DNA of 64,000 nucleotides from Octopus vulgaris (lineage: Eukaryota): assembly GCA_951406725.2 (NCBI GenBank), contig OX597822.1, forward strand, positions 45,632,001 to 45,696,000, given 5' to 3'. A program made the translations under genes and the position numbers. The notes beneath the pieces are model-generated. The model did not search any database. It saw only the letters and a list, made by a program, of their open reading frames with translations, and had not been told where the DNA came from. This document shows, piece by piece, positions 2,915 through 59,183 of this stretch; the stretch's first letter is position 1; each line of letters opens with the position of its first letter.

Positions 2915-3377
2915 CAGTAGCGGACTGACCAGTTTGTCAGCTTTCTCGATGGCAAGTGGGCCCCTGCGTTATTAGAATCCATATATGGGGACTCATGTTA
3001 ATATCTAAGGGGCCCATCCCCTCAAGTTTGAGAATTTTTTTATTCACTCTTGGAAGAATGCATAAATTACTCCAGCCTAGCTGTGTTTGTAGACAGTTGA
3101 AAAGAATATTTTTAACAAAAAAATTAAATGATAGCATTGTAGCTGCGGGTGGCCCCCCTTGTAGTTGCGGTTGATCCCCCTTGTAGTTGCGGATGGGCTC
3201 CCTTATAGCTGCCTGTTGGCTCCCTTGTAGTTGCGGGTGGGCTCTCTTGTAGCTGCGGGTGGGCCCCCTTGTAGTTGCGGGTGGGCCCCCTTGTAGTTGC
3301 GGGTGGGCCCTCTTGTAGTTGCGGGTGGGCCCCCTTAGTCGCCTGGTAACCAATATTTTAGACCCAGTCCGCCACTG
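2915..3377. mobile_element. Non-autonomous hAT-type element containing a 22-bp minisatellite (ttgtagttgcgggtgggccccc, about 9 units, 3138-3345)
   Basis: TIRs cagtagcggactg / cagtccgccactg; 8-bp TSD ccctttac / cccattac (1 mismatch). Confidence 0.8.
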
Positions 3378-5434: not shown

Positions 5435-5645
5435 GCGAACTGGCATAGTCGTTAGCTCGTCGAGCAAAATGCTTAGCGGCTTTTCGTCCCGTCTTTCCGT
5501 TCCCAGTTCAAATTCTGCCGAAGTCGACTTTGCATTTCATTCCTTCGGGATCGATAAAATAAGTACCAGTCAAGCACTGGAGTCGAAGTAATTGATTTAC
5601 CCCTGCCCCCGAAATCGCTGGCCTTGTGCCAAAATTTGAAACCAA
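5435..5645 (+). mobile_element. tRNA-derived SINE, family C. Other copies: 35325-35650 +, 47960-48165 -, 55440-56290 - (cluster), 61915-62440 +
   Basis: Recurrent sequence ctggcagaatcgttagc...gttcaaattccgccgaggtcgactttgcctttcatcctttcggggtcgataaa... with an AT-rich tail. Confidence 0.75.
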
Positions 5646-5673
5646 TATTATTATTGTTATTTGTTTATATATA

Positions 5674-5733
<60 letters not shown>

Positions 5734-5933
5734 GTATATGTATGTATAAATATAACATATAATATGTGTATATATATATATAACATAATGTATGTATGTA
5801 TGTATGTATGTGTGAGTGTATACGCGTATGTAAGTCTGTGTGCGTGTGTAAGTGCATGCTGCCCAAGGCATTCTTTATGCTATCAAACCTCAATATTTTC
5901 GTATTAAATGCCCTTGTGGTTGATAATAATGAA

Positions 5934-7051: not shown

Positions 7052-7254
7052 GGTGTGTGCGTGTCCCTCTGTCTGTCCCTCTGTCTGTATTTGTGTGTGT
7101 GTTTATGGGAGTAGTTTTTTTACAACCTACCGCCGCCAGACAACCGGTGTTAGATTGTTTATGTCCCCGTAACTTAGTGATTCGGCTATAGAAACTGATT
7201 GAATAAACATCAGATTTTTTTAAAAAAACAGAAAGATACTTAGCTCGATTTCAC

Positions 7255-7772
7255 AGTTCTATATTTGAGAGATGATGAATTATGTAAATTATTTACATTT
7301 GATGGATATTTGTCCTCATCTTGTTAGTTGTTAACACAACGTTTCGGCTGATATACCCTCCAGCCTTCATCAGGTGTCTTGGGGAAATTTCGAACCTGGG
7401 TTCTCATTCCTAAGGTATTTTTCGATGTTATTATTATTCAGGTCACTGCCTGGAATCGAACTCGGAATCTTGGGGTTAGTAGCCTGCGCTCTTAACCACT
7501 AGGCCATATCCCGTGGGCGTATGGCATAGTGGTTATGGCCCACGGGCATATGGCGTAGTGGTTAAGAGCGCGGACTACTAACCCTAAGATTCTGAGTTCG
7601 ATTCCAGGCAGTGACCTGAATAATAATGATAATAATAATCCCCATGTTCGAAATTTCCCCAAGGCACCTGATGAAGGCTGGAGGTTGTATCAGCCGAAAC
7701 GTTGTATTAATAACAAACAACATGAGGGCAAATATCCGTCAAATGTAAATAATATAAATAATGTAAATAATG
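7255..7772. mobile_element. Fold-back tRNA-head/(AAT)n/hammerhead element (Penelope pLTR-derived), copy 1, inserted in a SINE
   Basis: Inverted arms meet at the tRNA-like head; HHR at 7334-7377 (-) and 7664-7707 (+); TSD ttagctcgat on both sides. Confidence 0.85.
7544..7616 (+). promoter_or_regulatory. tRNA-like Pol III internal promoter (A box 7551-7561, B box 7594-7605)
   Basis: TGGCGTAGTGG...GAGTTCGATTCC at tRNA spacing; anticodon-like loop ctactaa; acceptor stem not paired, so not a functional tRNA. Confidence 0.75.
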
Positions 7773-8517
7773 TTAGCTCGATATGTTCGACTAAATCCGT
7801 CAAGATTATTCTCCAGCATGGCTGCAATCCAGTAACTTAAACAAGTAAAGAGAAAATGTGTGTGTGTGTGTGTGATAAAAAAAAACAGGCAGAGAAATTA
7901 TAGGAATTGTAAGTTGTGAAGAATGTATATGAAAGATACTTTATTGTGATGTGATAGAAACATTGTCGGCGTTTCGTTGTATAATATTTTGGAAAACAGA
8001 AATATGTAAGGAATGTTTTAGGATTGTATACATCTCCGAAATACAAGGATCATATTTTCTGAAGTCATTAATGTAAGCAGACATGTTTTGAACAATGGAC
8101 CTATTTTATATAGCAAATATCATCATTTAAATTCAAGATATATTTAGAGATTGGTGTGGTGTGGCATCTTACGTATCTAAATGTATGCATATGTTGTGCA
8201 AGTCTTTTAAAGGGAGTTTCAGTAAGCCCTATACAGTTATTTGTTTTTTCTATTATTTGCAAGAGAAAGACCTTAACTCGATAAGCTAGTGTTTGGTAAA
8301 GGTGTATGCCATCCAGTGGGCAAATATTAGGGAGGTTGAAGTTACAATATAAAATATGATAGTAACAGAAAGTATCTTGAAAACAAAAAAAAAAGACACA
8401 GAATGGTAAGAAAAATATAAATGGTGTTATTTATTGGGAGGTGGATAAATATGTGAATGCAAATAAAAAAAATAGACTTACGAGACTATGTAATTGTTAT
8501 TACTCTAAAATCTATCA

Positions 8518-9813
8518 GTTCTATATTTAAGAGATGAGGAATTATGTACATTATTTACATTTGACAGATATTTGTCCTCATCTTGTTTGTTGTTATACAA
8601 CGTTTCAGTTGATATACCCTCCAAGCCTTCATCAGGTGTCTTGGGGAAATTTCGAACCAGGGTTCTCATTCCTAAGGTATTTTTCGATGTTGTTGCTGCT
8701 GCTGTTATTGTTGTTCAGGTCACTACCTGGAATCGAAGACGGAATCTTGGGGTTAGTAGCCCGCGCTCTTAACCACTACACCATATGCTCATGAGCAATT
8801 ATGGAGTGAATTTTAGGGCTTATAAATCTAATATTCTCCTGTCCTCCCTTAATGCCGGTTCCCATATGCTGTTCATGTCGGCACTCAGTCTGCTTAGGAG
8901 GTTGTTGTGTCCTAGCATATGTGCTGCTTCTTTTAGTTTTCATATTTTCTAGTGGTGTTCTCTGTCTATTATTTTAAGCAACAACTACCCCAAAAGCATA
9001 CTATCCACTCCAATTATGAAGAAAAGAGGGGATGAAACCGATTAACTGTCCAGTCTGTCTACCCTATGTGAAAGGCCTCTCCGAAAAGAGACAAAATATA
9101 TACGGCCCATATGACATCAGGACAGTATTCAAGAGCAATACAACACTTCGCAAATATCTCATTCGAATAAAACCACCAATAGAAGAGAATATGACTAAGA
9201 ACTGCGTGTACTCCATCCCATGCATTTGTGGTAGGTTATACAAAGTTGAAACATGCCGTCCCTTCAAAATAAAGGTAGAGGAACATCGCAAAGCTGTGAC
9301 ACGGGGAGATATTGATAAATCGGGTATAGATAATCATGTGTGGAAAAATGGAAACCACCTCCCCCTGTGGGATGAAGTTAAAATAATAGACAGAGAACAC
9401 CACTGGAAAATATGAAAACTAAAAGAAGCAGCACATATGCTAGGACACAACAACCTCCTAAGCAGACTGAGTGCCGATATGAACAGCATATGGGAACCGG
9501 TATTAAGGAAGGACAGGAGAATATTAGATTTATAAGCACTAAAATTCACTCCATAATTGCTCATGAGCATATGGTGTAGTGGTTAAGAGCGCGGGCTACT
9601 AACCCCAAGATTCCAGACAGTGACCTGAATAATAATAATAATAATAATAATAACAACAACAACATCAACATCGAAAAATACCTTAGGAATGAGAACCCAG
9701 ATTCGAAATTTTCCCAAGACACCTGATGAAGGCTGGAGTGTATATCAGCCGAAACGTTGTGTTAACAACAAAGATGAGGACAAATATCCGTCAAATATAA
9801 ATAATGTAAATAA
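8518..9813 (+). mobile_element. 5'-truncated Poseidon-type Penelope element with inverted pLTR (copy 2 of the fold-back family); GIY-YIG remnant 9032-9540
   Basis: LPYVKGLSE...CVYSIPCICGRLYKVETCRPFKIKVEEHRK...HHWKI*KLKEAAHM; 8518-8975 is the inverse of about 9378-9813; TSD tctaaaatct(a/g)tca. Confidence 0.88.
9719..9762 (+). ncRNA. Minimal type I hammerhead ribozyme in Penelope pLTR
   Basis: acac CTGATGA a ggctg gagtgtatat cagcc GAAA cg TT gtgt; palindromic stem III AACGTT. Confidence 0.75.
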
Positions 9814-12800
9814 TCTAAAATCTGTCATCGCAGACCATATGTCTTTTCTAAAGTACTGGGTTTTGGGTTTTGTTTTGTTTTGTTTGTTTCGTTTTTTGTT
9901 GTTTTTTTTTTTGCCTTCTCTCGCAAGTAACAGCAATATGGAGGCATACTGAAAATTCGTTTAACAGTAAATTATCATAACATACGTATATATGCAGGCA
10001 CCTGGAAAGAAGCTTCATCGCCTCAATCTCTATTCAAATCAATCTGGAACTTACAGGATTATAGTATTAAGAATTAATGGTTCCAGAAAGTGTGATTCTT
10101 ATCCCTCGAGTAAATATAACATAATTCAATAAGAGATGGAAATTCGTAAAGTCTTGCAGACGCTTCCATCAATATTAGTAGAGAAGTTTCCAAATACCAA
10201 CTCACGAAAGTAGATTATTTTCCATATAGTAGGACAGGGTGGCCACATATTGAAGATAAATCATTTAGTTACTCATCAACATAAACTGCAATAGGTATAT
10301 TTCTTGTTTTCATGAGTTTTACACGTTGTGAAGGTATGAAAACATTACGTGGTTTTTTGCATAAGAACAGAAGAATGCATCATGTGTCCTGCATCTAGCA
10401 ATTGAAGACATGAATACGAGATACATTTTCTAACGGTTCGGGAGTCGCAACAAGTCAAATTTCGATAATTGATATTTTGATATTTGTAAATATTGTTTCT
10501 TATATATTTTCACGCTACTTCTCTTCAAATATATCAATAGTCGGCGACCTGAAATTCTAACAATTGAAGAAGCTTCAGCTTCTAATAAAATGCACAAATT
10601 CCATTTTGTACTTTTTACTTCGTTTCTAACCGCAGCGTACATCAGTCCACGCGTGTGGTGTATATCTCTGTGTGTGTGTGCATGTTGGGAAACCTATATG
10701 TATTTAAAGGTGTGACTTCCGTCCGCTGTGATTCTGGGATTGGCCGTTCAACTTTTCAATGAGACTGGTATTACATATCAAGCATTTATGTTTGTGTGTC
10801 TGTGTTGTCCCCCCACCCCCACCCCCAACATCGCTTCACAACCGATGCTGGTGTATTTACGTCCCTGTAACTTAGTGGTTCGGCAAAAGAGACCGATAGA
10901 ATAAGTACTAGGCTTACAAAGAATAAATCCTGGGGGGTCGACTTGCTCGACTAAAGGCGGTGCTCCAGCATGGCCGCAGTCAAATTACTGAAACAAGTAA
11001 AAGAGTATGCAAGCTCATTCAACGTTTGCATAAATGATAATAAAACAATAGTTTGTTCTAAAACGCGTTTATGACTGAAGTGTAGTATTTATTTTTCGGT
11101 CGCTTGTGCCGAACCGCTAACTTATGGGAACGTAAACAAACCACCACCGGTTGTCAAACGGCAGCGGGCAACAGCCACAAAGACACACACACACAAAGAT
11201 AGATAGATACATACATGCATACATACATGCATACATACATACATACATACATACATACATACATACGGGTTTCTTTCAGTTTCTGTCAACCAAATCCATT
11301 CTCAAGGCTTTGGTCGGCCCGAGACTATTGTAGAAGACACTTTCCTAAGGTGCCATGCAGTGGGATTGAACCCAGAACCACGTGCTTGGAAAGCTAACCT
11401 CTTTCGTCATAGCCACGCCTGCGCTTTAGAGATGTTTGCCTTGCCTTTGTACCTACATATAAACGTAATCTCTGACTTTCCGGTTTAATATTTAATACGT
11501 TTGCGTTAATAATGATTATATTTTTCGGCATTTGTGGTGTTGGCAGTGATGGAAGTGATTTTGTTGTTTCATTGTAGTGGTGTAGAAGTGGGGTGATGGA
11601 AATAGATAATGATTAAAATTATCAGTAATATGGCGAGAAAGGTGGTGGCGCTGGTGGTGGTTTGTGGTAGTGAAGAAAGTCAGAGGTGATTTAATGTTGT
11701 GGGGACGGCGGAGAAGAGAATTTAGCTGTGGGGGGGAAAGGATGAGGAGGTAGTGGAGTGGGAATGATGATTGGAATTGGTGATAGTAGTGGATATGAAG
11801 AGCTGCAGAAGGTATTTGGAAAGACAGGCGATTATGCAGGGGTCTGGTGGTAACAGCGGCGGTGGTGGGGTGGCTAGGTGTGGTTGGGAATAGGTGTGGT
11901 TAGGGATAGAGGTGGTGGTTGACAGTTCGAATCAATCAATCTACTTCCTCACAATTTTTCAAAAGGTGCCTGAGCGAGATGGAGCGGGGATTGGTGAAGA
12001 ATCGATCTCATGGATTGTTATTAATTAATGGGGTCTTTTAGGGTAGAGCAGGTGTAGGGTTTGTTGGAGTGGGACAAAAAGGAAAAGGGAGAAAGAAAAT
12101 GTTTGGAGAAAAATTTGAGGGAAAGTTTCTGTGTGGTGGGGGAGTTGAGATAATGACATTTCAAATAAGTGCAGGTGTGGGAGTGAAGTGGGGTTGGGGG
12201 GGGAGAACTCAGATTCCATCCTCATCACCATCATTATCATCATTGCAATTATTAATGACAATAACAAAACAGCAATAAGAAGAAACCGAAATGCCAGAAC
12301 TCAAGTCTACGTGTACGTATGAAAGCAAATATCTTTTAAACAATTTCAACTGCACACGAGGTAGCGTTTGATGAACATATTAAATAGATTTGTGACATTA
12401 GCATGAGATATTTTCTGCACGCTCGTGAGCGCGCGCGCGCGTGTGTGTGTGTGGTCTTACTGGCGAAACATAGCAGCCATAGTTACAGGTGTGTGCCCAA
12501 ATCAACAGCAGTTGCCAAGCAGTAGTGGGGACAAACAGACACAATGACACCTATACATACACAAGTGTGTGTGTGTGTGTGTGAGACGGGCTTCTTTCAG
12601 TTTCTGTCAACCAAATCTACTTACATGGGTTTGGTGGCCCGAGGCTATAGTAGAAGATACTTGCCCAAGGTGCCACGCGGTGGAAATGCATCCAAAATCA
12701 TGTCGGAGGAATTTCAACCGTGTTTCGTGGTCTGCTACCACAACAGCTCCTTTATAGGATCCAGTTAGCTCAAGACATCATCAGGAGGAACCACGTCCGG

Positions 12801-13019
12801 TTTCGGCCTCTAATCCTCTACCGTTTTGACGTTGCAGGCCCCCCCTCCCCTTCGGAGGTGTCTTCAGCTCTGGTGTTGGGTGCATGTCTTCTTTCTTCTT
12901 CTTTCTTCTGTTCCCTGACTTCTTCGCTGTAGCGTCAACGAGTGTCAGCGGGCGACTGACTGTCTTGTTAATTTTTTTCCTTTAAATACCTGCTGCTAGG
13001 CTCCAGCAGACAGCCCCAG

Positions 13020-13560
13020 CAAGTTGTCCTTCCCAACCAATTGGTTCCGAGTTCAATCCCACTGCGTGGCACCTTGGGAAAGTGTCGTCTTCTATAGCCT
13101 CGGGCCGACCAAAGCCTTGTGAGTGGATTTGGTAGGCGGAAACTGAAAGAAGCACGACGTATATATGTATATATACGTATGTGTATATGTTTGTGTGTAA
13201 GTAGCTTGCTTACCAACCACATGGCTCCGGGTTCAGTCCCACTGCGTGGCACCTTGGGCAAGTGTCTTCTACTATAGCCTCGGGCCGACCAAAGCCTTGT
13301 GAGTGGATTTGGTAGACGGAAACTGAAAGAAGCCCGTCGTATATATGTATGTGTGTGTATATGTTTGTGTGTCTGTTTGTCCTCCTACCATGGCTTGACA
13401 ACCGATGTTGGTGTGTTTACGTCCTTGTAACTTAGCGTTTTGGCAAAAGGGAACGATAGAATAAGTACCAGACTTACAAAGAATGTCCTGGGATCGATTT
13501 GTTCGACTAAAGGCGGTGCTTCAGCATGGCCGCAGCCAAAGGACTGAAACAAGTAAAAGA
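13020..13560 (+). mobile_element. tRNA-derived SINE, family A (partial copy followed by a near-complete copy)
   Basis: gggttcagtcccactgcgtggcaccttgggcaagtg...ctgaaagaagcccgtcg...(TG)n...ccagcatggccgcag...ctgaaacaagtaaaaga. Confidence 0.85.
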
Positions 13561-14313
13561 ATACTCACACAGACATTAAAGCAAGCAGCTAAGGGAGAGT
13601 GGGGTGATGATTTTTCTACAGTGCGCATGCGCACAAAATTTGCTAGCGAACTACTACAACAAAGAGTGCTTGCGTGGGAGGCAAGTGCAGTGAGGTAGAG
13701 AAGTTAATAGGGAGTTAATGAAACAGAAAGGGAAAAAATAATTATGTCATTAGCTATGGCGACGCATAAAAACAAAGGATAGGAATGTGTGTCAATATGC
13801 GCATGCGCACATTAGTTTTAACATTTGCAAATTTAAGGAGACAAAAGAGGATAGAGATCTGAAAGGGGAAAAGAATTAAGAAAAAGAAAACGTCCTTTTG
13901 TTACCATATTTCCATTGAAATAAACAGACCTTTGTTTCAAAGCATTTTGGAAATAATTTAATAAAGTCGCTATTAGATTTATGCTTGGAAGAAAATTTTA
14001 ATAGAATTTTAATGAAAGGTTTTGACTTTGCTCAATCTGAAACAAGAAGTTTATATCGTAGAATCAGAAGTGAACTCAGGCGGGATGGTTTGAAGAGTTA
14101 ACCCTTGTTGGAGAAGCCGTATTTGAACCTAGTTTGTGTCTGCTTCCTCGTTAAGCTTCCTCGGTCAAGTGAAGGCGAGCCTAGGGGTGAATGGGAGTGT
14201 GAGTTAAGACTGTTGTTTTTAACCCACTTCTTGGCAGAATATTTTACTGATATACTCCGAGTACTGATAGCTGAACGAATCCTACAAAAGTTCTCATTGA
14301 ACATAAAATAGTG

Positions 14314-15943: not shown

Positions 15944-16732
15944 AAACAAGTGAAAAAACAAAAAATAGAAAATGCTAAAATAATTTTATAGTGAACATTT
16001 CAGTACCGGTTTCGGTCATTTTGAGACCTTTTCAACTGTAACGATTAAATAATTAAATTTAGAAAAATTAGAAGAAAAGTTTTTTTAAAAGAATATTTCT
16101 ATAGTAGTGTTCAGATTTAAGTGGCATTCTGCCTTTCTCTGACTCCCTTGTTTGCACTTGTGTGTTCGAGGTAGTTGTGAGTTCTTGGTAGGGTAGAAGA
16201 GGGAAGGCTGGTGAGGAAAGGGGGTGGGAGAATCTGGGAGTGCCCTGATGGTCGTATTTTGAATGGTCAGTGGCGGCTGGCAGTCTGCAGTTCAATTCAG
16301 GAGAATATTTATATTGAGAGGTTTGTTTATAGAATTAGCGTAGGTGTTATACTAAAAAACATTAGTGACAAACTTAAGGGGTAGGGGGTGGAGAAGAAGA
16401 AGAAGAAGAAGAAGGAGAAGGAGAAGATGATGGTGATGGTGGTGATGATTATGACGACGATGATGATGATAACGATGATGATGAAGAAGAAGAAGAAGAA
16501 GGAGGAGGAGGAGAAGGAGAAGATGGTGGTGATGATGGTGGTGATGATGATGACGCCGATGATGATGATAACGATGATGATGAAGAAGAAGAAGAAGAAA
16601 AAAACAGAGAAGGGAGAATATGAATGGGTGTAAATATAGCTATGAAGGGGCTGATTAGTAATGGATTCTATGGAATGTAGTATTTGTGTGTGTATATATA
16701 TTTTTTCTTTTATTCTAAAGTTGAGGTATATT

Positions 16733-18850
16733 AATTGTTTGTCGTAGACCCGTTAAGAAGTGGCCTGTATTTTGTAATAAAGAGATTTTCTTTACTTATT
16801 CTTTGTCTCGAGGTTGTATCGTCCCTAAATTGGTAGAGGGGGAAAATTCTGAAGTTGGTGTTTTTTGTTGGCGCAAGTATCTATGTGTTGGCTGAAAGCT
16901 ATTTTTCTGTTTTGGGGAATTTTTATCTGGGATCTGTGCAGGGCCATTCGTTTACGCAAACCATTTTTTGTTTGGCCTATGTACTGCTCTTGACACCCGG
17001 AGCAGGTTAGTGAGTATATTAGGTTCTCCGAAGCACATGTGAAGTTGCTTTTCACTGTAAACCGTTGTCCCTGTTTGAAGGAGAACTCAGAACCCTCGAT
17101 TAGATAGTCGCATATCCCGCAATTGGGTCTTCCACATTTTTTTACTGTCGGCTTCTGTGTTGAAGAGTGAATTCGGGCTTGTGTTAGATGGAGGTGTGTT
17201 CATTCTGTGGTCTTTTTTTAGGAGGGGTATGTTGTGGAGGATGGTGTCGAAGGCTTCGTTATTGAGAGGGTTGTGTGTGGAGATGTATGGTAAGGCTTTT
17301 GGTTGTAAGTTTTTCTTTGATTTGGGATGTCTCAGTTCCTTGATGTTAAGTTGAAGGGCACGTTGAATGCACTTGTCTGTTCTGGTGATTAGGGTATCTT
17401 TTAGTTCTTGTAGTCGTGTGTCTCTGGTGTTTGCGTTAGAGACTATAGTGCATATCCTTTTTGCTAGATTGAAGGGGATATTCATCCTGGTGTGTCTGGG
17501 GTGGCATGAATTGAATGGAAGATATTGCTTAGAGTCTGTAGGCTTATAGTATATGTCTGTTTCTATTATATTATTAGCTTTCTTAATGAGGATATCGAGG
17601 AAGGGGAGTTGTTGTTGGCTATATTCCATCGTGAATTGGATGTTTACGTCCAGTCCGTTTAAAATTTTCTGTAATTCTATGAGTTTTTCTATATTTTTAT
17701 GCCAAAGGATGAAACAGTCATCTAGATATCTCTTCCAGTTGTTTTCTATGTAGATGGAGAAAGGGCTGCCATATCTTTCTAGAACCTTACGATACAGACT
17801 GATCTCTAGGTATCCTATGACTAGGTTGGCAAAGGAGGGGGCCATTCGTGTACCCATCGCAGTCCCCGATTTTTGTCGGTAGAAGTTGTCATTGAAGGCG
17901 AAGAAGTTATTTTCCAGGATGAATTTAACCCCTTCTATCACAAATTCTTTTTTGATGCGGTGTGGTAGTTCGTTGGCGTGATTCTCTAGCCAGAATTGGA
18001 TTGCCTCTAGTCCTAGGTTGTGGGGGATATTGGAGTAGAGGTTGACTACATCGAAGGATACCAGTATGGTGTTTTTGTTTATAGTATTCGGTAGGTGATT
18101 GAGCATATCTAAGTCGTCCCTTATATAGCTTTTGACATGTTTGAGGAGTGGTTTTAACAGGGTGTCTAAAAAGTTACTGAGGCGGTGGGTTTCGCATGCG
18201 GGACCTGCTATTATGGGTCTCAATTTGAGGTCATTAGGATTAGGGACTTTAATTATTTTGTCTGTAGCTATCTTGCATGCGTTGCTTATTTTTTCACTTT
18301 TGTGGATCTTAGGTATACCGTAGAATTGGCTAGTTTTACTTGTGAAATTGGTCATATAATCATATTCTTTGTCGGTGAGCCCTGCTTTGTATGGGTTTAA
18401 TATGGATTTTAGTTCCCTCATTATTTTTTGTTGACTGTAGTTTTGTGCCTTTTCATAGTATGTTGTGTCTTCCAGCATAGAAAGTACCAAAGTTATGTAA
18501 AATGTCGTATCCATTAAGACAACAGCACTCCCTTTATCGGCCTCTTTGATTGTTATTGTTTTATCTAGTTTTAATTTGTTCAACTCAGCCCATTCTTTTT
18601 TGCTGAAGTTTGGTTTGTGTTTTTGTTTGTGCATATGTTGATATGGGTAATTTGATATGTGGTCACAGAAATCATCAAGTGTTTTATTCTTACCTTTCGA
18701 GGGGGTGTAGTTACTCCTATTTCTGGCTAACGATTCGTCCTCGTTGTATTTATCGTATAGCTCCTCAAGTAAGTCTTAATTTTCTGCAGAATTCTGCGAT
18801 GTCTTCTTTCATTTCATTGTAGTTGGGGTGTTGTGGGGTGGGTGTAAACT
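16733..18850 (-). pseudogene. Penelope RT-GIY-YIG polyprotein, disrupted (main open segment 17087..18634)
   Basis: RT motifs LRPIIAG, SFDVVNLYSNIP, QKSGTAMGTRMAPSFANL, WKRYLDDCF, FLDILI; linker KKCGRPNCGICDY; endonuclease NLIYSLTCSGCQEQYIGQT; frameshifts near 17170, 16855 and 18650. Confidence 0.92.
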
Positions 18851-19678
18851 TGAGAATTTTCCCCCTCTACCAATTTAGGGACGATACAACCTCGAGACAA
18901 AGAATAAGTAAAGAAAATCTCTTTATTACAAAATACAAGCCACTTCTTAACGGGTCTACGACAAACAATTAATATACCTCAACTTTAGAATAAAAAGAAA
19001 AAATATATATATACACACACAAATACTACACTCCATAGAATCCATTACTAATCAGCCCCTTCATAGCTATATTTACACCCATTCATATTCTCCCTTCTCT
19101 GTTTTTTTCTTCTTCTTCTTCTTCATCATCATCGTTATCATCATCATCGGCGTCATCATCATCACCACCATCATCACCACCATCTTCTCCTTCTCCTCCT
19201 TCTTCTTCTTCTTCTTCTTCTTCTTCTTCTTCTTCATCATCATCGTTATCATCATCATCGTCGTCATAATCATCACCACCATCACCATCATCTTCTCCTT
19301 CTCCTTCTTCTTCTTCTTCTTCTTCTCCACCCCCTACCCCTTAAGTTTGTCACTAATGTTTTTTAGTATAACACCTACGCTAATTCTATAAACAAGCCTG
19401 TCAATATAAATATTCTCCTGAATTGAACTGAGACTGCCAGCCGCCACTGACCATTCAAAATACGACCATCAGGGCACTCCCAGATTCTCCCACCCCCTTT
19501 CCTCACCAGCCTTCCCTCTACTACCCTACCAAGAACTCACAACTACCTCGAACACACAAGTGCAAACAAGGGAGTCAGAGAAAGGCAGAATGCCACTTAA
19601 ATCTGAACACTACTATAGAAATATTCTTTTAAAAAAACTTTTCTTCTAATTTTTCTAAATTTAATTATTTAATCGTTA

Positions 19679-19716
19679 CAGTTGAAAAGGTCTCAAAATG
19701 ACCGAAACCGGTACTG
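19679..19716 (+). ncRNA. Minimal hammerhead with U3-A8 core variant in Neptune pLTR; identical copy at 16001-16038 (-), mutated copy at 19960-19997 (-)
   Basis: cag TTGAAAA ggtc tcaaaat gacc GAAA ccgg TA ctg; palindromic ACCGGT stem III; GUA site. Confidence 0.72.
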
Positions 19717-19799
19717 AAATGTTCACTATAAAATTATTTTAGCATTTTCTATTTTTTACTTGTTTTTTCATATATATCAACTCGTGTGTTCCTTTTCAC

Positions 19800-21184: not shown

Positions 21185-21712
21185 AGAAAGTTTGTTTGGT
21201 AAAGCACGTGGGTGAATATATAAGAAAATAGTAAAGAGTGAAAAAACGACAGAAGGCTTAAATGTTAAAAAATATATATATTTGTGTCAAAATGTCTGGA
21301 GAATATTGGAAAAATTTTTTTCCTTTCCTTAAAATGACATAATTTCATAATTTTTAAAGAAATACCGGTTTCGCGTGTAGCTTTTCAAATTTCTTGTGAC
21401 GTTATGTTTATATTGCATGAAGTTATCGTTGTGTTTATTTTCAGGAGATTTCTAAATAAGGGGAGGTAGCGAGTGATTTCTTCCGGTGTAAGGGAGATAA
21501 TCGCTTAAAAATTTTTTTCCTTTCCCTTGTTAATTTCTCTGTGTCAGTATGTTCAGATGGTTGAGTCTGGGTTTGTACTTTTCAATGAAGAATGTTTCCT
21601 TGTTCAGTCTCATTTGTGTTGATGATCCGAAAGCACATTGGTAAAATGGGAAGATTAAAAATTGTGGCAGTAGTTGCTTTGCGCATTTCTCAATGTGTTC
21701 ACTAAAAGATAG
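21185..21712 (-). mobile_element. 3' fragment of a related Penelope family (GIY-YIG C-terminus plus pLTR with HHR-like motif at 21359-21393)
   Basis: FSEHIEKCAK...FPFYQ...RLNKETFFIEKYKPRLN parallels FSQHIDTCAN...FPLYQ...KETLFITKYRPLLN; TTGAAAA gc tacac gc GAAA ccgg TA. Confidence 0.75.
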
Positions 21713-21720
21713 AATGATAC

Positions 21721-22006
21721 ACACGTTCGCGCATGCGCACGCACACGTTCGCACATGCGCACGCACACGTTCGCGCAGGCGCAGTCACACTTTCGCGCAT
21801 GCGCAGTCACACTTTCACGCATGCGCAGTCACACTTTCACGCATGCGCAGTCTCAACTTCGCGCATGCGCAGTCACACATTCGCGCATGCGCAGTCACAC
21901 GTTCGCGCATGCGCAGTCGCACCTTCGCGCATGCGCAGTCACACTTTCGCGCATGCGCAATCACACGTTTGCGCATGCGCAGTCACACTTTTGCGCAGGC
22001 GCACGC
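21721..22006. repeat. 13 x 22-bp CpG-rich minisatellite, consensus acacNttcGCGCATGCGCagtc
   Basis: Units counted directly. Confidence 0.92.
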
Positions 22007-22060
22007 ACACGTTGCCGCACGCACATATATGTGCGCATATAGCATAAGACCATATATATA

Positions 22061-23476
22061 TCTATATATATAAAACTCTAGTCGTGTGAGTGTCTGTCCC
22101 CTTCGATTTAGATTCCTAACACCTCCCACATTTTGCGGTGCAGTTTAACCAAATTCGGGTATCTTATAGTCGTGATTCATATCAAGCCCGTCTGGCTATT
22201 AGCGCGCGTCAACGGTGAGTCTACGATTTTAAAAATAATTTAACATCATTTTTTATTCCATTTTAATGCATAATTTTTCGTGTGTCGATGGCGGCGGAGT
22301 TGGCGTCCACGCTCACAGCTGCACCTGTTTGCTTCTCCCCCTTCCCTCCCTCGTGAAGCTGTGGGGAAGGGAGTGTAAAGAAATCAACGTCGTAATGCGT
22401 TGTCAAGGAGACCAGCGTTCTTTTAGAACAACGACTTCATGGCTTGAAGACACCAAAACAGAAATGGCTAAGAAAGCCCGAATTGGCATCTATAAGGGAA
22501 GTAACTCTCTAAAAATGCTTATATAGTTATTTCCCTTACAAATCCGAGCAACGCCGGGCGATACTGCTAGTCTATATATAAAAGTAAAGTTGTGTGAGTG
22601 TCTGTCTCCTACGATTTAGATTCCTAACTACTCCCACATTTTGCGGTGCAGTTTAACCAAATTCGGATCTCTTATAGTCGTGATTCATATCGAGCCCGTC
22701 TGGGTATTAGCGCGCGTCTACGATGAGTCTACGATTTTAAAAATAATTTACCATAATTTTTTTCCATTTTAACGCATATTTTTTCGTGTGCCGATGGCGG
22801 CGGAGTTGGCGTCCATGCTCACACCTGCACCTGTGTTGCTTCTCCCCTTCTTCCCTCCCTCGTGAAGCTGTGGGGAAGGGAGTGTAAGGAAATCAACGTC
22901 GTAAAGCGTTGTCAAGGAGACCAGCGTTCTTTTAGAACAACGACTTCATGGCTTGAAGTCGCCAAAACAGAAATCGCTAAAAAAGCTGAAACAGATCCAC
23001 AAAAACGGCAAAAATGCCACACAGGGCAGGTTTCCTGTGCAAACAATTTGCATAACCGAATGTTTTAGTTGTTGCACAAATCTTTATATATAAAAGTGAA
23101 GTTGTGTGTCTGTCTCCTACGATTTAGATTCCTAACTACTCCCACATTTTGCGGTGCAGTTTAACCAAAACCGGGTATCTTATAGTCGTGATTCATATCG
23201 AGCCCTTCTGGGTATTAGCGCGCGTCTACGATGAGTCTACGATTTTAAAAATAATTTACCATCATTTTTTTCCATTTTAATGCATTTTTTTTGCTATTAT
23301 ATAAGGGAAGTAACTCTCTAAAAATGTCTACGATGAGTCAACGATTTAAAAAATATTTACTATAATTTTTTTTCCATTTTTAATGCATTTTTTTGCTATT
23401 TTTTGGCTATAACTCTCTAAAAATGCTTTATAGTTATTTCCCTTACAAACCCGAGCAACGCCGGGCGATACTGCTA

Positions 23477-33330: not shown

Positions 33331-33711
33331 ATATATATATATGAGTGGCTGTGTGGTAAGTAGCTTGCTTACCAACCACATGGTTCCAGGTTCAGTCCCA
33401 CTGCGTGGCACCTTGGGCAAGTCTCTTCTACTATAGCCCCGGGCCGACCAAAGCCTTGTGAATGGGCTCGTCGTATGTATGTATATATATGTGTATGTGT
33501 GTGTGTGTGTTTGTATTTGTCCCCCACCCACCCACCAACATCGCTTGACAACCGATGGTGGTGTGTTTACGTTCCCATAACTTAGCAGTTCGGCAAAAGA
33601 GACCGATAAAATAAGTACTAGGCTTGCAAAGAATAAGTCCTGGGGTCGATTTGCTCGACTAAAGGCGGTGCTCCAACATGTTCACAGTCAAATGACTGAA
33701 ACAAAAGAAAG

Positions 33712-33789
<78 letters not shown>

Positions 33790-34171
33790 ACAGACGGACA
33801 AAGAATCATCAGTTTTACGTCTTCTAAAAACATCGACGATATACTCACTATGACCTCCATAACGTACCTCTGTCCTCCATCTCTCTCCTTACTTTCTATC
33901 TACTGGTTTATTACACTGCTTGCTCTCCACCTTTCCTGTACTTCCACTATCCCCACTTCCTTCCCCAATGATTTCTTTTACCTTCTCGTTCCCATACTGA
34001 TACTTATCATTGGCCACAACTTCTCCATTGTACAACATTCATTTCTCCCTTGATTTCAAACCAGCTGTCACTCTTCTCTAACACTCATACGGTCTGCCTT
34101 GTTTGTCTATTTTTGGAGATGACAAAAACTCCATCTCCTGGGCACTAGCAACATTTCTTAACAAAAAGCAA

Positions 34172-34341
34172 TAGGCGTAGGAGTGGCTGTGTGGTAAGTA
34201 GCTTGCTTACCAACCACATGGTTCGAATTCAGTCCCACTGCGTGGCACCTTGGGCAAGTGTTTTATACTATAGCCTCGGGCTGACCAAAGCCTTGTGAGT
34301 GGATTTGGTAGACGGAAACTGAAAGAAGCCCGTCGTATATA

Positions 34342-34386
<45 letters not shown>

Positions 34387-34612
34387 GTATGTGTGTATAT
34401 GTTTGTGTGTCTGTGTTTGTCCCCCCACCATCGCTTGACAACTGATGCTGGTGTGTTTACGTCCCCATAACTTAGCAGTTCGGCAAAAGAGACCGATAGA
34501 ATAAGTACTAGGCTTACAAAGAATAATTCTTGGGATCGATTTGCTCGACTAAAAGGCGGTGCTCCAGGATGGCCACAGTCAAATGACTGAAACAAATAAA
34601 AGAAGTAAAAGA
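34172..34612 (+). mobile_element. SINE family A, full-length reference copy. Others: 10800-11005, 11085-11425, 29285-29580, 33342-33710, 35700-36045, 46325-46650, 50975-51335, 56370-56580
   Basis: aggcgtaggagtggctgtgtggtaag head, internal (TA/TG)n, 3' aaatgactgaaacaaataaaaga. Confidence 0.9.
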
Positions 34613-35016
34613 GATGATTAGCAAAGATTTACAACTACCCCTCACCTCTAAAACACCTTTCCACTAGCAGCTTTTTATTCTGTACAAGTATGAAATCCTG
34701 ATCCTCACAAGATTTGACTTGTGTTTTATTATTTCCTGAAACCAACAATTTCTTTCTCTCTCTCCATTTTGTTTTTAACAATAGGAAATTCACAAACATG
34801 ATAATGTAACTGTGGATTAGTAATGGATGCTGCTTAGTCATTATACATTATTCAAATTTGTGTCTCTGACTTATCAGTCACAGACACACAGATCAACATT
34901 TAGCTTTCACTTTTTCATGCTTGCATGGATCACCCAATTTATTGAGGTAGATTTTCTTCAACTGCTTGACCATCCTGTCACCTAACCTCACTTGTTTTCA
35001 AGCAGTATACATACAA

Positions 35017-35312
35017 TTCTATATTTAAGAGATGAGGAATTATGCACATTATTTACATTTGACAGATATTTGTCCTCATCTTGTTTGTTAACACAACGCG
35101 GGCTACTAACCCCAAGATTCCGAGTTCAATTCCAGACAGTGACCTGAATAATAATAATAGTAATAATAACAACATTGAAAAAATACCTTAGGAATGAGAA
35201 CCCTGGTTCGAAATTTCCCCAAGACACCTGATGAAGGCTAGAGGGTATATCAGCCGAAATATTATGTTAACAAGCAAGATGAGGACAAATATCAGTCAAA
35301 TGTAAATAATGA
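35017..35312. mobile_element. Fold-back tRNA/HHR element copy 3 (short left arm)
   Basis: Same terminus ttctatatttaagagatg; TSD tatacatacaa; degenerate HHR at about 35224-35267. Confidence 0.8.
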
Positions 35313-36301
35313 ATATACATACAAGGCAGCGAGCTGGATAAATTAAGTACCAGTTGCATACTGGGGTCAATGTAATCGATTGGCCACTTCCCCAAAAGTT
35401 TCAAGCCTTATGCCTGGAGCAGAAAAGAATATATGTACACAGCAGCAAGCTAGCAGAAACATTAGCACGCTGGGCAAAATGTTTAGCGGTATTTCGTCTG
35501 TCTTTATGTTCTGAGTTTAAATTCTGCTGAGGTCAACTTTGCCTTTTATCCTCGATAAATTAAGAACCAGTTGCGTACTGGAGTCAACCTAATTGACTAG
35601 TCCCCACCTCCCTAAAAATTTCAGGCTTTGTGCCTAGAGTAGAAAAGAATATACGTACATATTCACACAGTTTATGTAAGTATGTACATATATGTATGTG
35701 TAATAAAAAGCTTGCTTCCCATCCACATGGTTCTGGGTTCAGTCTCACTGCGTGGCGCCTTCGGCAAGTATCTTCTAAAGCCTCAGGCTGACCAAAGCCT
35801 TGTGAGTGGATTTGGTAGACAAAAACTGAAAGCCCATCTTATATATTTATGTATGTATCTATGTGTGTGTCTGTGTCCCTCCATCACTGCTTGACAATCA
35901 ATGTTAGTGCCTTTATGTCCCCGTAACTTAGCCATATGGCAAAAGAGACTGATATAATAAGTACTAGGTTTAAAAAAATAAGTCCTGGGGTCAATTTGAC
36001 TAAAATCCTTCATGGCTGCAGTCAAATGACTGAAACAAATAAAACACACACACACACATATATGATGGGCTTCTTTCAATTTCCATCAACTCGGAGCTGG
36101 ATTGAACCTAAAATCATGTAGATGGGGACCAAACTTCTTAACCACAGAGCCACAACTGTGCCTTTTGGTTATATATATAACATACACACAGGAACAAATA
36201 TGTCCACAAAAAAAAAAAAATTAAGCAACGTAAAGAACAAAAACACAAAGTAAATGTATATACATATGTGTATATATATTTGATATATATATATATATGT
36301 C

Positions 36302-40098: not shown

Positions 40099-42481
40099 TA
40101 TATCCCTTTAGCATTCAGATTACTCCGTTAAATGCAGTGCCTGTTTATTCACATTGATTTGAATTAATCAGGGATTACCTCAGAATTTTCAATGATGTGA
40201 TTGTTTATTTTTTTAGAATGATAATGTAGGGTAGACGTGAGAGGCTGGATCTGGCCAGTTTCAACATCAAACTGGTAAAATATTTAGACCGGATATGGCT
40301 GGTTTGAATGGCAAAGGGGTATACATGTTAGAGGGGATCAGAGAGATAGAGACAACAAAGGGCCCAGAGGGAAGGAAATGACATCATTAGAGCTAAAGAT
40401 GTTGGGCTCTACAGACGAAATGATGCAAGGGGATTAACATAAAAAGACTGTGTGTGTGTGCATACACATGTGCTGCAGACCAATGAAACTTAACAACTGG
40501 GAAAATTAACAAGAGAATGGAAAGGTAATAAAGATTAAGATGATGATGGTGAGGGCACAGGTAATTACCATGGTGATAATGATGATAGTGGTGGTGGTGG
40601 GGTGGAGTAATGCAAGTCCAAGATCTTAACTGTGTGCATATACGTATGTGTAAATTATAACACATATTTACACATGGGTGTATATATATATATGTGTGTG
40701 TGTGTATGTGTGTGTGTGTTAATAGATCCACACATAACCATACAATCATCCTATTATCTCTAATGAGATAACAAGTCCAACAAAACAAATAAAAAATAGA
40801 TTAAAAAATTTAAACATTGTGATGGTTGTTGTTGTTGCTGATAGTGGCTACCTTTATTATTGTTGTTGTTGTTACAGCTGTCATTACAACTGCTGTCTTT
40901 GTTGTAAAGGTAATCAATAATGTAATTAATAAAATATAATATCTGGAAAATTGAAAATCAATCTTGCCAATACAACACTTATTTTATCTTCTGTATATAT
41001 ATGTGTGTGTGTATGTACATGTGTGAAGAAAATGCTTTTTACTAGAGAAACTAGAGCTGTATATGTAACAGCAACAATATGAAGTACCTCCTCCAGCTAT
41101 GGAGTGTTGTCACTTCATCACTATCACCACCTGTCCCCCACCGCACACACCATAAAGTGCTGTCACCTTTCCATCACCATCACTCCTCCATCCACAACAC
41201 ACTGACACCTCTCACCACTACTGACACCTCTCACCACTACTGCCACTCCTCCACCAACCATAAAATAGAAAAAGGGTTTCAAGATGGCAATTTCATACAT
41301 GATATTTGATATTTCAAGAGAGGGGAGTCACCAATGGAAGAGATCTGTTCTTTATCCAGGAGAATTCTCTCATTTGGTTGCCCTCCCTAACAACAATCTC
41401 ACCCAAAAATTTTTTTTCTTGCTCATTATCCTTTTCATATTATTATAACAGTCACCAGATGTGACAGTGTGGTTAAGCTTGCTTCCCAACCATGTGGTTT
41501 TGGGTTCAATGCCCCCACGTGACACCTTGGGCAAATGTCTTCTACTATAGCTACAGACTCACCAAAGCCTTGTGAATAGATTTAGTAAACTGGAAGACGC
41601 CTAGAAGGGGCAGGGCTTGTCTTGATATCATGTGCTGGTTGTAAATAACTATCACCATCATACAAGTGATGCTGTTCATTTCCAGTTTTCTGTGAAAAAC
41701 AAGTCTGGCCATGAAGAAATGTCTCCTTACCTGGAAATAAGTGAAAGTTGATGATGGGAAGAGCATCCAGCCACAGAAAATCTGCCACAACACATTCCAT
41801 CTGATCCATGCAAATGATGATGATGATGATATCATTGCTTTAGCATCTATTTTTTCTTCCCCCATGTTAGCTGAGTTCAAACTTGACTCACTGAGGCTTC
41901 CCAGTAAGGGTAGCACTTCCCACGATCTTTCAAACAATGAACAGTTCAAAAGCCAAACATGGCCTGCAGCATGTACACAATATCAAGACAATGGGCAGCC
42001 ACAAACACACATGCATATGAATGCACACACACACACACACATGAGATATGGCTGAGTAGGTGACAAATTTGCTTTTGATATTATAATAGTCACAGATGTG
42101 GCATTGTGGTTAAGAAGCTTGCTTCCCAAACATGTGGTTTTGAGTTCAATGCCCCAAAGTGAAACCCTGGGCAAATGTCTTCTACTATAGCTACAGACTA
42201 ATCCCAGGTTCAGTCCCACAGCACACTTTGGACAAATATCTTTTCCAATAGGCCCTGGAAAATATCTTTTCCAATCTAAGCCTTGATGAGTAGATTTAGT
42301 GAAAGAAGCTGAAAGATACCCATACACAATCATCCAATCTTCCATGCCGTCATGGGTTGGCTGTTTGAACAGGATCCAATGGATCAGAGAACCATGTCTT
42401 GCTCCGGTGCCTCAGTTTTAGCAACAATAAAAACAACAGGAAGGAGAAATGACCATGAAGTAAAGAAATGTACAGACTGAC

Positions 42482-42580: not shown

Positions 42581-43349
42581 CTAATCAGAAAAATACAAAC
42601 ACGACATTGAACATATTTATATAACACATTAATATAACACATACACACTTGATATGTAATTTGTATTTATATATTTACAAATGAGACATACATATATAGA
42701 TTGATAGATACATAGATAGACAGACGGCCATCAGCTCTGCTTTTGTGCCCATATACTTTGGAGGGTTGTGGATGTGTGTATATATAGAGAGAAACTAAAT
42801 GTAACATCATTATTATCGTTTAACATCTGCTTTCCATGCTGGCATGGGTTGGACAGTTTGAATGTGATCTGGAAAGCCAGTGGCTGCGCCAGGCTCCAAT
42901 CTAATTGGGCAATGTTTCTACAGCTGGATGCCCTTCCTAATGCCAACCATTCCGAGAGTGTAGTGGGTGCTTTTTACATGCCACCAGCACAGGAGCCAGT
43001 CAGGTGACTCTGGCAACGGCCATGTTTGGATAGAGCTTTTTACATGCTACCAGCATGGGAGCCAGTCAGACAGCCCTGGTACCAGCCATGTTCAGATAGT
43101 GCTTTTTACACGTCACCAGCAGAGAAGCTAGTCAAGGTTCGACTGTAAAAGGTTTGATCAAAATGTATCAAGACTGATACTATAAAAAGAAAACTACTAA
43201 TCCCCCTTAAAATACTTTCCTTCTAAAGCCACACACTTTATCTATCATCATCCGTGTTGATGGAAGCATTCCTGCAACTCCTTTTTTGGGGACAGTGAGT
43301 AGCTGCCTTGTTGCATTCCCATGGATTTTCTCTCAACATCTTGGAATGC

Positions 43350-43900
43350 TAATTCATACTGGACAGATGTGTGTCCTCATCTTGTTTGCTGTTACCATGT
43401 TTCAGCTGATTTACTCACCAGCCTTCATCAGGTGTCCTGATAGAATTTTGAACAACAATCCTGGGTTCTCATTCTTAAGGTATTTTTTGCTGATGTAATT
43501 ATTACTATTTATTCAAGGCATTGCCTGGAATAGAACTCGTCAATTATAGAGTGAATTTTAGGGCTTATAAACCTATTAAGACTGGTTCCCATTTTCTACT
43601 CATATCTGCACTAGGTCTGCTTAGGAGGTTACTGTGTCCTAGCATACGCGCTGCTCCTTTTAGTTTTCATATTTTCCAGTGGTGTCCTCTGTCTATTATT
43701 TTAATTTCATCTCGCAGAGGAAGGTGGTCTTCACTTTTCCATACATGATCAGCTATACCCAGGGTTGGATTCAAAAATTCTACCAGGACACCAGATGACT
43801 GCTGGAGAGTAAATCAGCTGAAATGTTGTGGTAACAATAAACAAGACGAGGACACATATCTGTCCAATGTAAATAATTCTTCATCTCTAAAATATAGAAC
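43350..43900. mobile_element. Fold-back tRNA/HHR Penelope derivative copy 4, with GIY-YIG C-terminal remnant (43560-43760, -), inserted in a mariner remnant (to about 44212, -)
   Basis: TSD aacatcttggaatg; terminus aaatatagaac; mariner motif VITGDRPWV and TIR tacgaggtctgatg. Confidence 0.8.
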
Positions 43901-44687
43901 ATCTTGGAATGTTGTTCCTTTCAAGTGGGATTTCATTTTCGCCTTAGTTTCAGGGTTATGGCTGTGTACCCATGGTCTGTCACCTGTTATGACTGTTTTC
44001 AAGACGTTTATGTATTTCTTGACACAATCAATGAGATCCTGCACAACTGAAAGCCAATCTTTCTCAAACACTGATATAAACAACAGAAGTGAGCAAGAAG
44101 GATAGAACAGTGTGCATGCATTCAAGGTCAATCTGTGCCAAGCGTCTTCACTCAGAGTACTTTAGCTCTGTTACCATAGTAACAGTTATGATACTTTTTC
44201 ATCAGACCTCGTATATGTAGATGCAGATATGTGGTAAGAAGTTTGCTTCCCAACCACATGGTTCCGGGTTCAGTCCCACTGCATAGCACCTTGGACAAGC
44301 ATCTTCAACTATAGCCCTGGCCCAACAATAATCTTGAGAGTGGACTTAGTAAACAGAAACTGAAAGAAGCCCATCGTGTGGGTGTGAGTTTGAGTCTATA
44401 TGTATGTGTGTGTTTGTCTTGTTGACATGACATCACTATTCCATGCTTGCATGGGTTAGACAGTTTACTGAAGCAGATTTTCTACAGCTGGATGCCCTAC
44501 CTGTCAGCAACCCTCACCTGTTCCCATGTAAGATAATATTCCCCCACAACCAGAAATATTTTCACAGAATATTGGAAACAAACAACACTGCTTGCATTAC
44601 GATACTTGCTTACAACTATCACATGATGTCAGGGCAAGAAAACTCAATAACACAAGCATATATGTGGAGGGGCGGGGGGGGGCTTAC

Positions 44688-49778: not shown

Positions 49779-49809
<31 letters not shown>

Positions 49810-50281: not shown

Positions 50282-50325
50282 GCCTGCTGATGAATACGTA
50301 AGTATGAAATCACTGTGATACAGGT
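50282..50325 (+). ncRNA. Type I hammerhead ribozyme, copy 1; predicted cleavage after A50320
   Basis: gcctg CTGATGA atac gtaa gtat GAAA tca ctg tga TA caggt: perfect core, three stems, AUA site. Confidence 0.88.
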
Positions 50326-50942: not shown

Positions 50943-50974
<32 letters not shown>

Positions 50975-57849: not shown

Positions 57850-59183
57850 GTCCCATAAATTACACGTTTTTTTATATTTCTGTTTTTCAAAATTAAAATA
57901 AAGTTCTTTTTTAATCTAAAATAAACTCTCTTCCATTTTCTACAATGCTCTTCCATCTATCTGATGGACTTGCAGGGTTCCTCTTCCAAAATTCACTTGT
58001 TCATGATGAAAAATACTTCTCCACTAAGTCATCTACAGAATTCATATTTTTTTCATCCAAATGATTTTAAAGACTGCGGAATAAAATAACAGATGGGGCA
58101 TTACATTATTTACAATTGACGGATATATGTCCACATCTTGTTTGTTGTTAACACAACGTTTCAGCTGATATACCCTCCAGCCTTCATCAGGTGTCTTGGG
58201 GAAATTTTGAACCCGAGTTCTCATTCCTAAGGTACTTTTCGTTGTTGTTATTATTCAGGTCACTGCCTGGAATCAAACTCAGAATGTTGGGATTAGTAAC
58301 CCGCGCTCTTAACCACTAAGCCATATGCCTGTGGGCATATGGCGTAGTGACCTTAATAATAATAATAACAACATCGAAAAATACCTTAGGAATGAGAACC
58401 CAAGTTCAAAATTTCCCCAAGACACCTGAAGAAGGCTAGAGGGTATATCAGCCGAAACATTGTGTTAACAAACAAGATGAGGACAAATATCCGTCAATTG
58501 TAAATAATGTACATAATTCATCATCTCTTAAATATAGAACAGATGGGGCATTGTCTGGTGAATATGGGGGGTGGGACATAATTTCCCATTCAAACTGCTC
58601 CAGCCTTTCGAATGTCATCCCCGCTGTATGCAGCCAATGATTATCTTGATAGAACACCTTTCGTCTTGAAACCAAAGATGGTCACTTTCCTTCAAGCGCT
58701 GACTTGAATGACAGGTTGAATGACCAAATGCAAGCATCTCTGCTAGTTCCTCAACAGTTATGATGGGATTTTGTTCCACCAGGGTTTGCAGGACATCCTC
58801 GTCAAGCTCTGCACATCTTTCAGGACAAGGCTCATCTTCTAGGCTGTAGCTTCCAGGTTGGAATTTCTGGAACTCCCATTCACACTGGCTTACGCATATT
58901 GTCTGACCCTTATATACTGCATTAATATACCTCACACTTTCTGTTGTATTGTCGCCTTTATTGAACTCATAAAGCAAAATATGCTGAATATGCTTTGTCA
59001 CTTTCATTATAGCTTTCAAAAATAACTTAAAAATTGAACAGCACTCTTCAAAACTTGCACAAAGAATAGGGACATGGTAAAATTACTACCTGCTTTTATA
59101 GCAAGTTGATGCAGGTAGTTTATCCCATCCCACCCCGGCTTCTAGTTCATGCAATTGAAAAGGACCACATTATTTATGGGATA
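57850..59183 (-). mobile_element. Degenerate mariner element (transposase pseudogene) interrupted at YSPDxAP by fold-back element copy 5
   Basis: TIR-like tcccataaat / atttatggga; HILLYEFNKG...INAVY...SLEDEP; WEIMSHPPYSPDNAPS; RWKSIVENGREF. Confidence 0.85.
58103..58540. mobile_element. Fold-back tRNA/HHR element copy 5
   Basis: Flanking duplication aacagatggggcatt (58088-58102 / 58538-58552); HHR at 58151-58194 (-) intact and 58422-58465 (+) mutated; fold-back centre at the tRNA head, about 58330. Confidence 0.88.

Follow-up and report, generated by a model that had tools for sequence, protein, structure and literature searches.

By the usual view Pol III makes no other RNAs of this kind than short, non-coding ones, and published accounts assign autonomous LINEs and LTR elements to Pol II and SINEs to Pol III (PMC3531059; PMC10886601). 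Penelope-like elements (PLEs) of the EN+ Penelope/Poseidon type, as described for Anolis PAc (PMC11167929), Adineta (PMC3846280) and elsewhere (PMC8557442), possess a single ORF for a reverse transcriptase (RT) with a C-terminal endonuclease, and a pLTR that is composed of a short UTR and the start of this ORF, with a hammerhead overlapping the ORF start and a palindrome at the pLTR 5' end. Their copies are reported to be inverted and 5'-truncated, with direct duplications (TSDs) and a one-sided tail from two priming sites, and this insertion structure, like the hammerheads, is established (PMC4209133). The tail, 30–40 nt at one end (PMC8557442), has been explained in PAc by two internal priming sites, ribozyme cleavage being dispensable, and in PAc, the sole PLE studied in vitro, the template is reported to require RNA past the insertion end (PMC11167929). 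The promoters described for EN+ PLEs in these accounts are Pol II-like (Inr/DPE/TATA).

A tRNA-derived Pol III head combined with a hammerhead has already been described in the schistosome element Sm-alpha (PMC6765202, PMC2770079), and Sm-alpha and Sj-alpha of Schistosoma are, according to these descriptions, non-coding, often tandem and furnished with a canonical cleaving ribozyme. The TRIMp3 elements Cassandra, Helenus and Ajax carry a small-RNA-derived Pol III promoter in the terminal repeat, for which an origin by SINE insertion has been proposed, but they are portrayed as short non-autonomous LTR elements whose autonomous partners are argued to require Pol II (PMC10886601). Non-LTR retrozymes are non-coding hammerhead sequences related to pLTRs (10.64898/2026.07.22.740005; PMC7761336), which are head-to-tail tandems by definition and for which these sources describe no promoter.

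In the current study, we analysed a family that is represented by five insertions in a stretch of 64,000 nucleotides of the Octopus vulgaris genome (contig OX597822.1, positions 45,632,001 to 45,696,000; hereafter the window). PLEs are already known for the inverted arms, single-sided tail, TSDs and minimal hammerhead that these insertions show. In contrast to the described EN+ PLEs, the UTR of the octopus element is a tRNA-like sequence with A and B boxes followed by (AAT)n, and its sense strand is devoid of T-runs. It differs from Sm-alpha and Sj-alpha in that the module here forms the 5' end of an element that codes for protein and the inserts do not stop at the cut site, from TRIMp3 in that the head sits on an autonomous element, and from the non-LTR retrozymes in that its non-coding copies are not head-to-tail tandem units: they are dispersed stubs with the same sequence as the parent, and most of them are head-to-head or consist of a single arm. 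Among literature titles and abstract openings, none described a PLE that has a tRNA head and is free of T-runs, and the available text of a recent octopus repeat annotation, whose repeat library may contain the family, mentions no such arrangement (PMC13282606). New here is that no TTTT is common to the copies anywhere in the ORF of a tRNA-headed PLE.

Anatomy of the family and its insertions in the window

The five insertions are members of one PLE family. Its coding unit is approximately 2.7 kb long; it opens with the head and (AAT)n, continues with the AUG, the hammerhead, the tail and the remainder of the ORF for RT and endonuclease, and closes with the stop, which 26 nt separate from the next head. 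Continuity between head and ORF was seen in locus L261, where the sequence runs on beyond the tail into the ORF, and was confirmed by nine further loci found with that stretch; L328 starts at the head, passes (AAT)n, hammerhead and tail and enters the ORF, while L334 and L335 begin further inside the unit. An AUG located 124 nt from the 5' end of the head opens a reading frame across the hammerhead, the encoded peptide matches the N-terminus of a relative, P0012 (847 aa), and the ORF stop lies ahead of the next head. Since the head runs into the ORF, the AUG frame matches P0012 and the stop precedes the next head, the pLTR, like that of Anolis PAc, is made up of UTR and ORF start. The head therefore serves the element itself as 5' UTR, of a length comparable to that reported for PAc (126 nt; PMC11167929).

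The ORF, for which 644 homologues were retrieved, matched the RVT_1 domain with an E value of 3e-6, short of the curated cut-off. By its architecture the octopus element would belong to the Penelope/Poseidon clade; the quick tree included no named reference. The candidate hammerhead was recognised from three sequence features, the core motif, stem II and a palindromic helix III; a search of Rfam gave no match for the module and folding z-scores of the region were unremarkable.

The original prediction placed inverted-arm insertions at 7255–7772, 8518–9813, 35017–35312, 43350–43900 and 58103–58540 (insertions 1 to 5 in Table 1), each with its own direct duplication and a shared terminus. All five were found, with their arms head-to-head, private TSDs of 10 to 15 bp and the shared terminus, here termed the tail, on a single arm of each. 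The order proposed for insertion 2 was likewise recovered, the ORF remnant with its stop at 9533 being followed by the head, (AAT/AAC)n at 9628–9663 and the hammerhead core at 9723–9755. That remnant, assigned to GIY-YIG in the original prediction, shares 54% identity with the C-terminus of the PLE protein P0012; it yields no Pfam GIY-YIG match. The fold-back centre coincides with the 5' end of the head in insertions 1 and 5, as had been claimed. The A and B boxes are not complete in every insertion: an A box is present in three of the five, insertions 3 and 4 being without it, and a recognisable A and B pair in only two, the B box of insertion 2 having been removed by a 12-bp deletion in the right arm and mutated in the left.

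Table 1. Coordinates of the PLE insertions, their component parts and neighbouring features (window positions unless L337 is named)
Feature	Position	Strand	Description
Insertion 1	7240..7782	.	two head-to-head pLTR copies without ORF body; tail on left arm
Insertion 1 TSD	7240-7249 and 7773-7782		10 bp (pair 7240/7773)
tRNA-like head, insertion 1 right arm	7544..7616	+	A box 7551-7561, B box 7596-7604
Near-palindrome	7538-7547		10 bp; spans 5' end of right-arm head, insertion 1
tRNA-like head, insertion 1 left arm	7441..7513	-	A box 7506-7496, B box 7461-7453
Predicted ORF start codon, insertion 1	7399..7407	-	about 124 nt from head 5' end, upstream of hammerhead
Putative minimal type I hammerhead motif, insertion 1	7330..7380	-	core 7373-7341; within ORF start
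Putative second hammerhead motif, insertion 1	7668-7700	+
Insertion 2	8504..9823	.	inverted ORF-end and pLTR arm joined to sense arm; TSD pair 8504/9814 (10 bp)
Insertion 2 inverted arm	8516-8977	-	ORF end and pLTR, tailed
Insertion 2 sense arm	8978-9813	+	untailed end
Decayed PLE ORF, C-terminal endonuclease part, insertion 2	8978..9535	+	in-frame stops; sense strand without TTTT
Downstream pLTR, insertion 2	9559..9813	+	A box 9572-9582, B box deleted, ATG 9689
Insertion 3	35006..35324	.	short tailed minus arm without hammerhead core, and sense arm; TSD pair 35006/35314 (11 bp)
Insertion 3 sense arm			begins inside head, hence no A box
Insertion 4	43335..43911	.	more diverged copy, 71-80% identity; TSD pair 43335/43898 (14 bp)
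Insertion 4 arms			minus arm with ORF end, most of head deleted; plus tailed arm
Insertion 5	58088..58552	.	fold-back centre on head palindrome, about 58320-58345; TSD pair 58088/58538 (15 bp)
Insertion 5 right arm			tailed; internal deletion in head
Mariner-type transposase remnant (HTH_48)	58618-59082	-	adjoins insertion 5
L337, intact tandem PLE from a metagenome	L337:2829-3190 and 5620-5741		A/B-box-like head, (AAT)n, hammerhead; ORF almost free of T-runs
Second PLE, distant clade	15953-19764		334-bp inverted arms
ORF of second PLE	17090-18775	-
Minimal hammerhead cores, other families	1635-1800, 50287, 50763, 53599 (minus), 60860
Inverted arms	49799-50601		231 bp
22-bp tandem repeat arrays	3115-3358 and 21676-22069
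Resident tRNA-type SINEs	12995-13567, 33334-33719, 34171-34610, 41448-41582, 44212-44436, 50970-51345, 54712-54846		others also present

Fourteen 100-kb blocks of the 2.8-Gb genome, thirteen of them picked at round coordinates and the fourteenth next to the window, contained 13 clusters corresponding to about 10–11 insertions, from which the family is extrapolated to roughly 20,000 copies. One 33-nt hammerhead motif has 2,166 exact matches in the genome, and two variants have 639 and 409. A search of viral contigs gave no locus and one of prokaryote genome contigs two. L401, a PLE ORF located on a contig of 2 kb in the assembly of a bacterial symbiont, is probably host contamination.

The tRNA-like head and the ends of the copies

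Consensus-type A and B boxes are positioned 45 nt apart in the head, a strict pattern that was encountered in 0 of 3,000 simulated units. Rfam and ARAGORN at default settings made no tRNA call for the head, and ARAGORN under relaxed settings returned mixed isotypes; the head, which like the hammerhead was identified by its motifs, is not a folded tRNA. According to the caution given in SINEBase, A and B boxes amount to an indication and no more (PMC3531059). No source tRNA was found with one degenerate pattern (0 matches), and RF00005 was listed at 34 places.

In the predicted direction, an intact B box is present in 58/89 arms that start at the head as opposed to 8/25 unselected ORF-linked arms (15/52 of all ORF-linked arms), yet this excess in short arms is not specific because a control hexamer in the ORF start follows the same trend (48/72 versus 9/23). 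The 12-bp B-box deletion stood at 2/20 against 1/101 (P 0.07). Arms linked to an ORF showed more C-to-T changes at CpGs in TCGA context (reference positions 681, 733 and 765) than arms starting at the head; at the remaining CpGs the two groups were equal.

Breakpoints were mapped in 119 insertions, that is, 130 loci anchored on the hammerhead motif less eight that were seen twice through both arms and three that were long. A 5' breakpoint peak had been forecast at the head and is indeed located there: 65/119 arms start within 60 nt of the head 5' end, 41/119 further 3' and 13/119 further 5', and the stop hazard amounts to 3.0 per 100 nt at the head versus 0.04–0.44 elsewhere, with the A and B boxes held at an exact distance from the peak. 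Part of bin 700–719 (17 arms) reflects a break in the alignment at the microsatellite. The tRNA-like segment is present in most copies, 80/119 insertions extending to the A-box region, and by deepest reach 73/119 start at the head and 15/119 include the ORF end. The notion of a Penelope element that bears a tRNA-type A/B head is supported. The peak marks the RNA 5' end and not the polymerase, since sharp pLTR 5' ends with palindromes are also described for PLEs without tRNA heads (PMC3846280). One pair of the breakpoint loci has common flanks and another a common TSD; the two pairs, L172/L208 and L193/L194, suggest duplication after insertion.

The 3' ends cluster at two positions approximately 30–40 nt apart, about 50–95 nt downstream of the predicted hammerhead cut site. 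Exactly one arm is tailed in 69 of 75 head-to-head inserts, and a TSD of at least 8 bp is present in 41 of the 75 (control, 1). The family also offers a quantitative genomic picture of PLE integration, with a fixed 5' run-off point and a single tailed arm. As the insert ends lie downstream of the cut site, an RNA of approximately 200 nt ending at the GUU site, which the original prediction had proposed as the template, cannot have served for these inserts.

The same prediction regarded the short copies as a stand-alone, self-propagating SINE, a view that the comparison with the coding unit does not support: the head continues into the ORF and the short copies bear no SINE-specific variants. 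Comparison of 57 ORF-linked with 113 head-start arms yielded no diagnostic column, the differences representing decay or gaps in the ORF-linked arms, although the sample of arms is small and compatible with a minor SINE lineage. Given the lack of a diagnostic column and the continuity of head and ORF, the short copies are most readily understood as run-offs from the RNA of the element itself. Measured against SINEBase (PMC3531059), the copies are short, interspersed and at least 100 in number, and where SINEBase specifies at least 60% tRNA identity over 60 nt, the comparison was with the resident tRNA-type SINE heads only, to which the head is 62–68% alike over 56–67 nt. The family is not a SINE by two defining tests, for it is not a non-autonomous family distinct from its partner, the head continuing into the ORF, and its copies end at two PLE-type sites inside the ORF and not in a simple-repeat 3' tail.

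T-runs in this and other elements

It was predicted beforehand that a coding unit made by Pol III should have a sense strand without TTTT (T4). There is no TTTT in the 2.1 kb of L326, and among 105 fragments of the family (58.5 kb) 17 scattered TTTT were counted, any one site occurring in at most two copies. ORF pieces of the family contain 3 TTTT in 22.8 kb, an observed/expected ratio (O/E) of 0.06, as compared to 64 in 32.9 kb (O/E 0.95) for 29 LINE/LTR control ORFs selected by Pfam from 78 candidates, 7 in 3.0 kb (O/E 0.99) for three other PLE-type ORFs of the octopus genome, and 413 in 66.3 kb (O/E 1.52) for 43 metagenomic PLE relatives, which were drawn from 65 loci by retaining long matches and excluding near-duplicates. 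Of those relatives with an expectation of at least 3, 0/29 were free of T4. One control ORF contains no T4 over 1.58 kb. Because the copies descend from one ancestral sequence the test amounts to a single observation, and the probability of no TTTT in one ancestral unit is 0.005 at the control rate of the genome itself and 0.004 by base shuffle, but 0.07 when dinucleotides are modelled and 0.12 when the codon usage is that of the element, so that these latter null models partly absorb the signal.

A short distance upstream of the hammerhead, 6/28 query-selected ORF-linked arms carry a T4, as does the window's own copy; the frequency was 2/26 in unselected ORF-linked arms versus 11/202 in short arms. 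If inherited from a source element, this T4 would halt Pol III ahead of the sites of priming. Among the indexed runs, no RNA set was listed as containing the family. In three raw RNA-seq runs (unstranded) under a related label 82–87% of the matched reads continue into unlike sequence, and the reads consequently show embedded copies and not a start site.

Among the 43 metagenomic loci, many of whose contigs do not span the UTR, the only one with A and B boxes on the sense strand was L337, an intact tandem PLE with a unit of 2,791 bp. Its boxes (chance 2e-4 per interval) directly follow the ORF stop and precede (AAT)n and the hammerhead; Rfam made no tRNA call for this head. Two T4 occur in the first 360 nt of the unit and none in the remaining 2.43 kb, where 5.3 are expected (P 0.002; whole unit, P 0.048). 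In the quick tree headless elements fall between L337 and the octopus family, with support just below the starred level. The second PLE of the window gave no A/B pair in a relaxed scan, and its ORF has three T4.

Proposed transcription and copying of the unit

From the observed order of the unit, the breakpoint peak at the head and the lack of a shared TTTT on the sense strand we infer the polymerase, the priming and the translation. The best explanation, to which we assign a probability of about 0.52, would be that the insertions are 5'-truncated PLE copies, that the A/B-box head is the 5' UTR and that the whole unit of about 2.7 kb is transcribed by Pol III, the last of these standing at roughly even odds. 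Pol III, having initiated at the head, would find no T-run to halt it and would read across the ORF into the next repeat, and the element's protein would prime reverse transcription internally at two sites some 120 and 150 nt into the ORF (compare the account of PAc in PMC11167929). Priming near the RNA 5' end would produce run-off cDNAs ending at the head, which would be most of the copies, whereas priming in the downstream repeat would produce the ORF-linked copies. If both target strands prime, one per site, head-to-head inserts with a single tailed arm would be expected, and the near-palindrome of the head probably aids the joining of cDNA ends.

It is conceivable, though unlikely in our estimation, that this is an ordinary Penelope transcribed by Pol II, in which a tRNA or SINE relic happens to lie at the start of the pLTR, the lack of T-runs is a compositional chance and the breakpoint peak reflects a Pol II start or a palindrome prone to fold back. 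Such an element would accord with the fixed, palindromic pLTR 5' ends reported for headless PLEs (PMC3846280), with the internal LINE-like promoter described for the D. virilis Penelope (PMC2377424), with the P values of 0.07–0.12 under the richer null models and with the unspecific outcome of the B-box comparison; it is hard to square with boxes kept at an exact distance from the peak, with the absence of T-run depletion in nearly all control ORFs and with L337, a second and distant PLE that couples the same two traits. Two polymerases could alternatively be at work, Pol III RNA from the head templating the short copies and the mRNA arising where Pol II reads through from promoters that lie upstream or belong to the host. 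This arrangement, which we rate a little lower, accounts for the peak and sidesteps the problem of translation, and it agrees with the two T4 near the 5' end of L337, which could terminate a short RNA, and with the T4 that some ORF-linked arms have ahead of the hammerhead, yet it provides no reason for T-run avoidance over the whole octopus ORF or 2.43 kb of L337.

The proposal of the original prediction, that the short copies make up a SINE of their own, which is mobilised by Penelope, transcribed from solo insertions and then copied again, appears improbable. The high copy number and the prevalence of short, non-coding insertions that start at the head (73/119) are what it would lead one to expect, solo pLTR sequences of Adineta are reported to be able to act in trans (PMC3846280) and non-autonomous PLE derivatives have been described (10.64898/2026.07.22.740005; PMC8557442). 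Nevertheless, the short copies have no diagnostic variant, the head is also the 5' end of ORF-bearing copies, the ends correspond to PLE priming sites and not to a simple-repeat tail or the ribozyme cut, and solo copies lack the downstream sequence which PAc is reported to need in vitro (PMC11167929).

Were the 2.7-kb coding unit, with its A and B boxes and no T-runs, made by Pol III as we favour, it would break the division between Pol II and Pol III retroelements and raise the questions of how an uncapped RNA is translated and what role a hammerhead plays downstream of the AUG. A wider scenario, which we put forward tentatively and hold to be somewhat short of an even chance, would comprise at least two acquisitions of a tRNA or SINE promoter by PLEs, the purging of Pol III terminators, end-to-end transcription by Pol III, translation without a cap, run-off stubs resembling SINEs and a path that may lead to hammerhead SINEs, Sm-alpha among them. 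Some resident SINE heads of the sampled blocks may, to go by their likeness, share the origin of the PLE head; tRNA-type SINEs are abundant in the window (Table 1).
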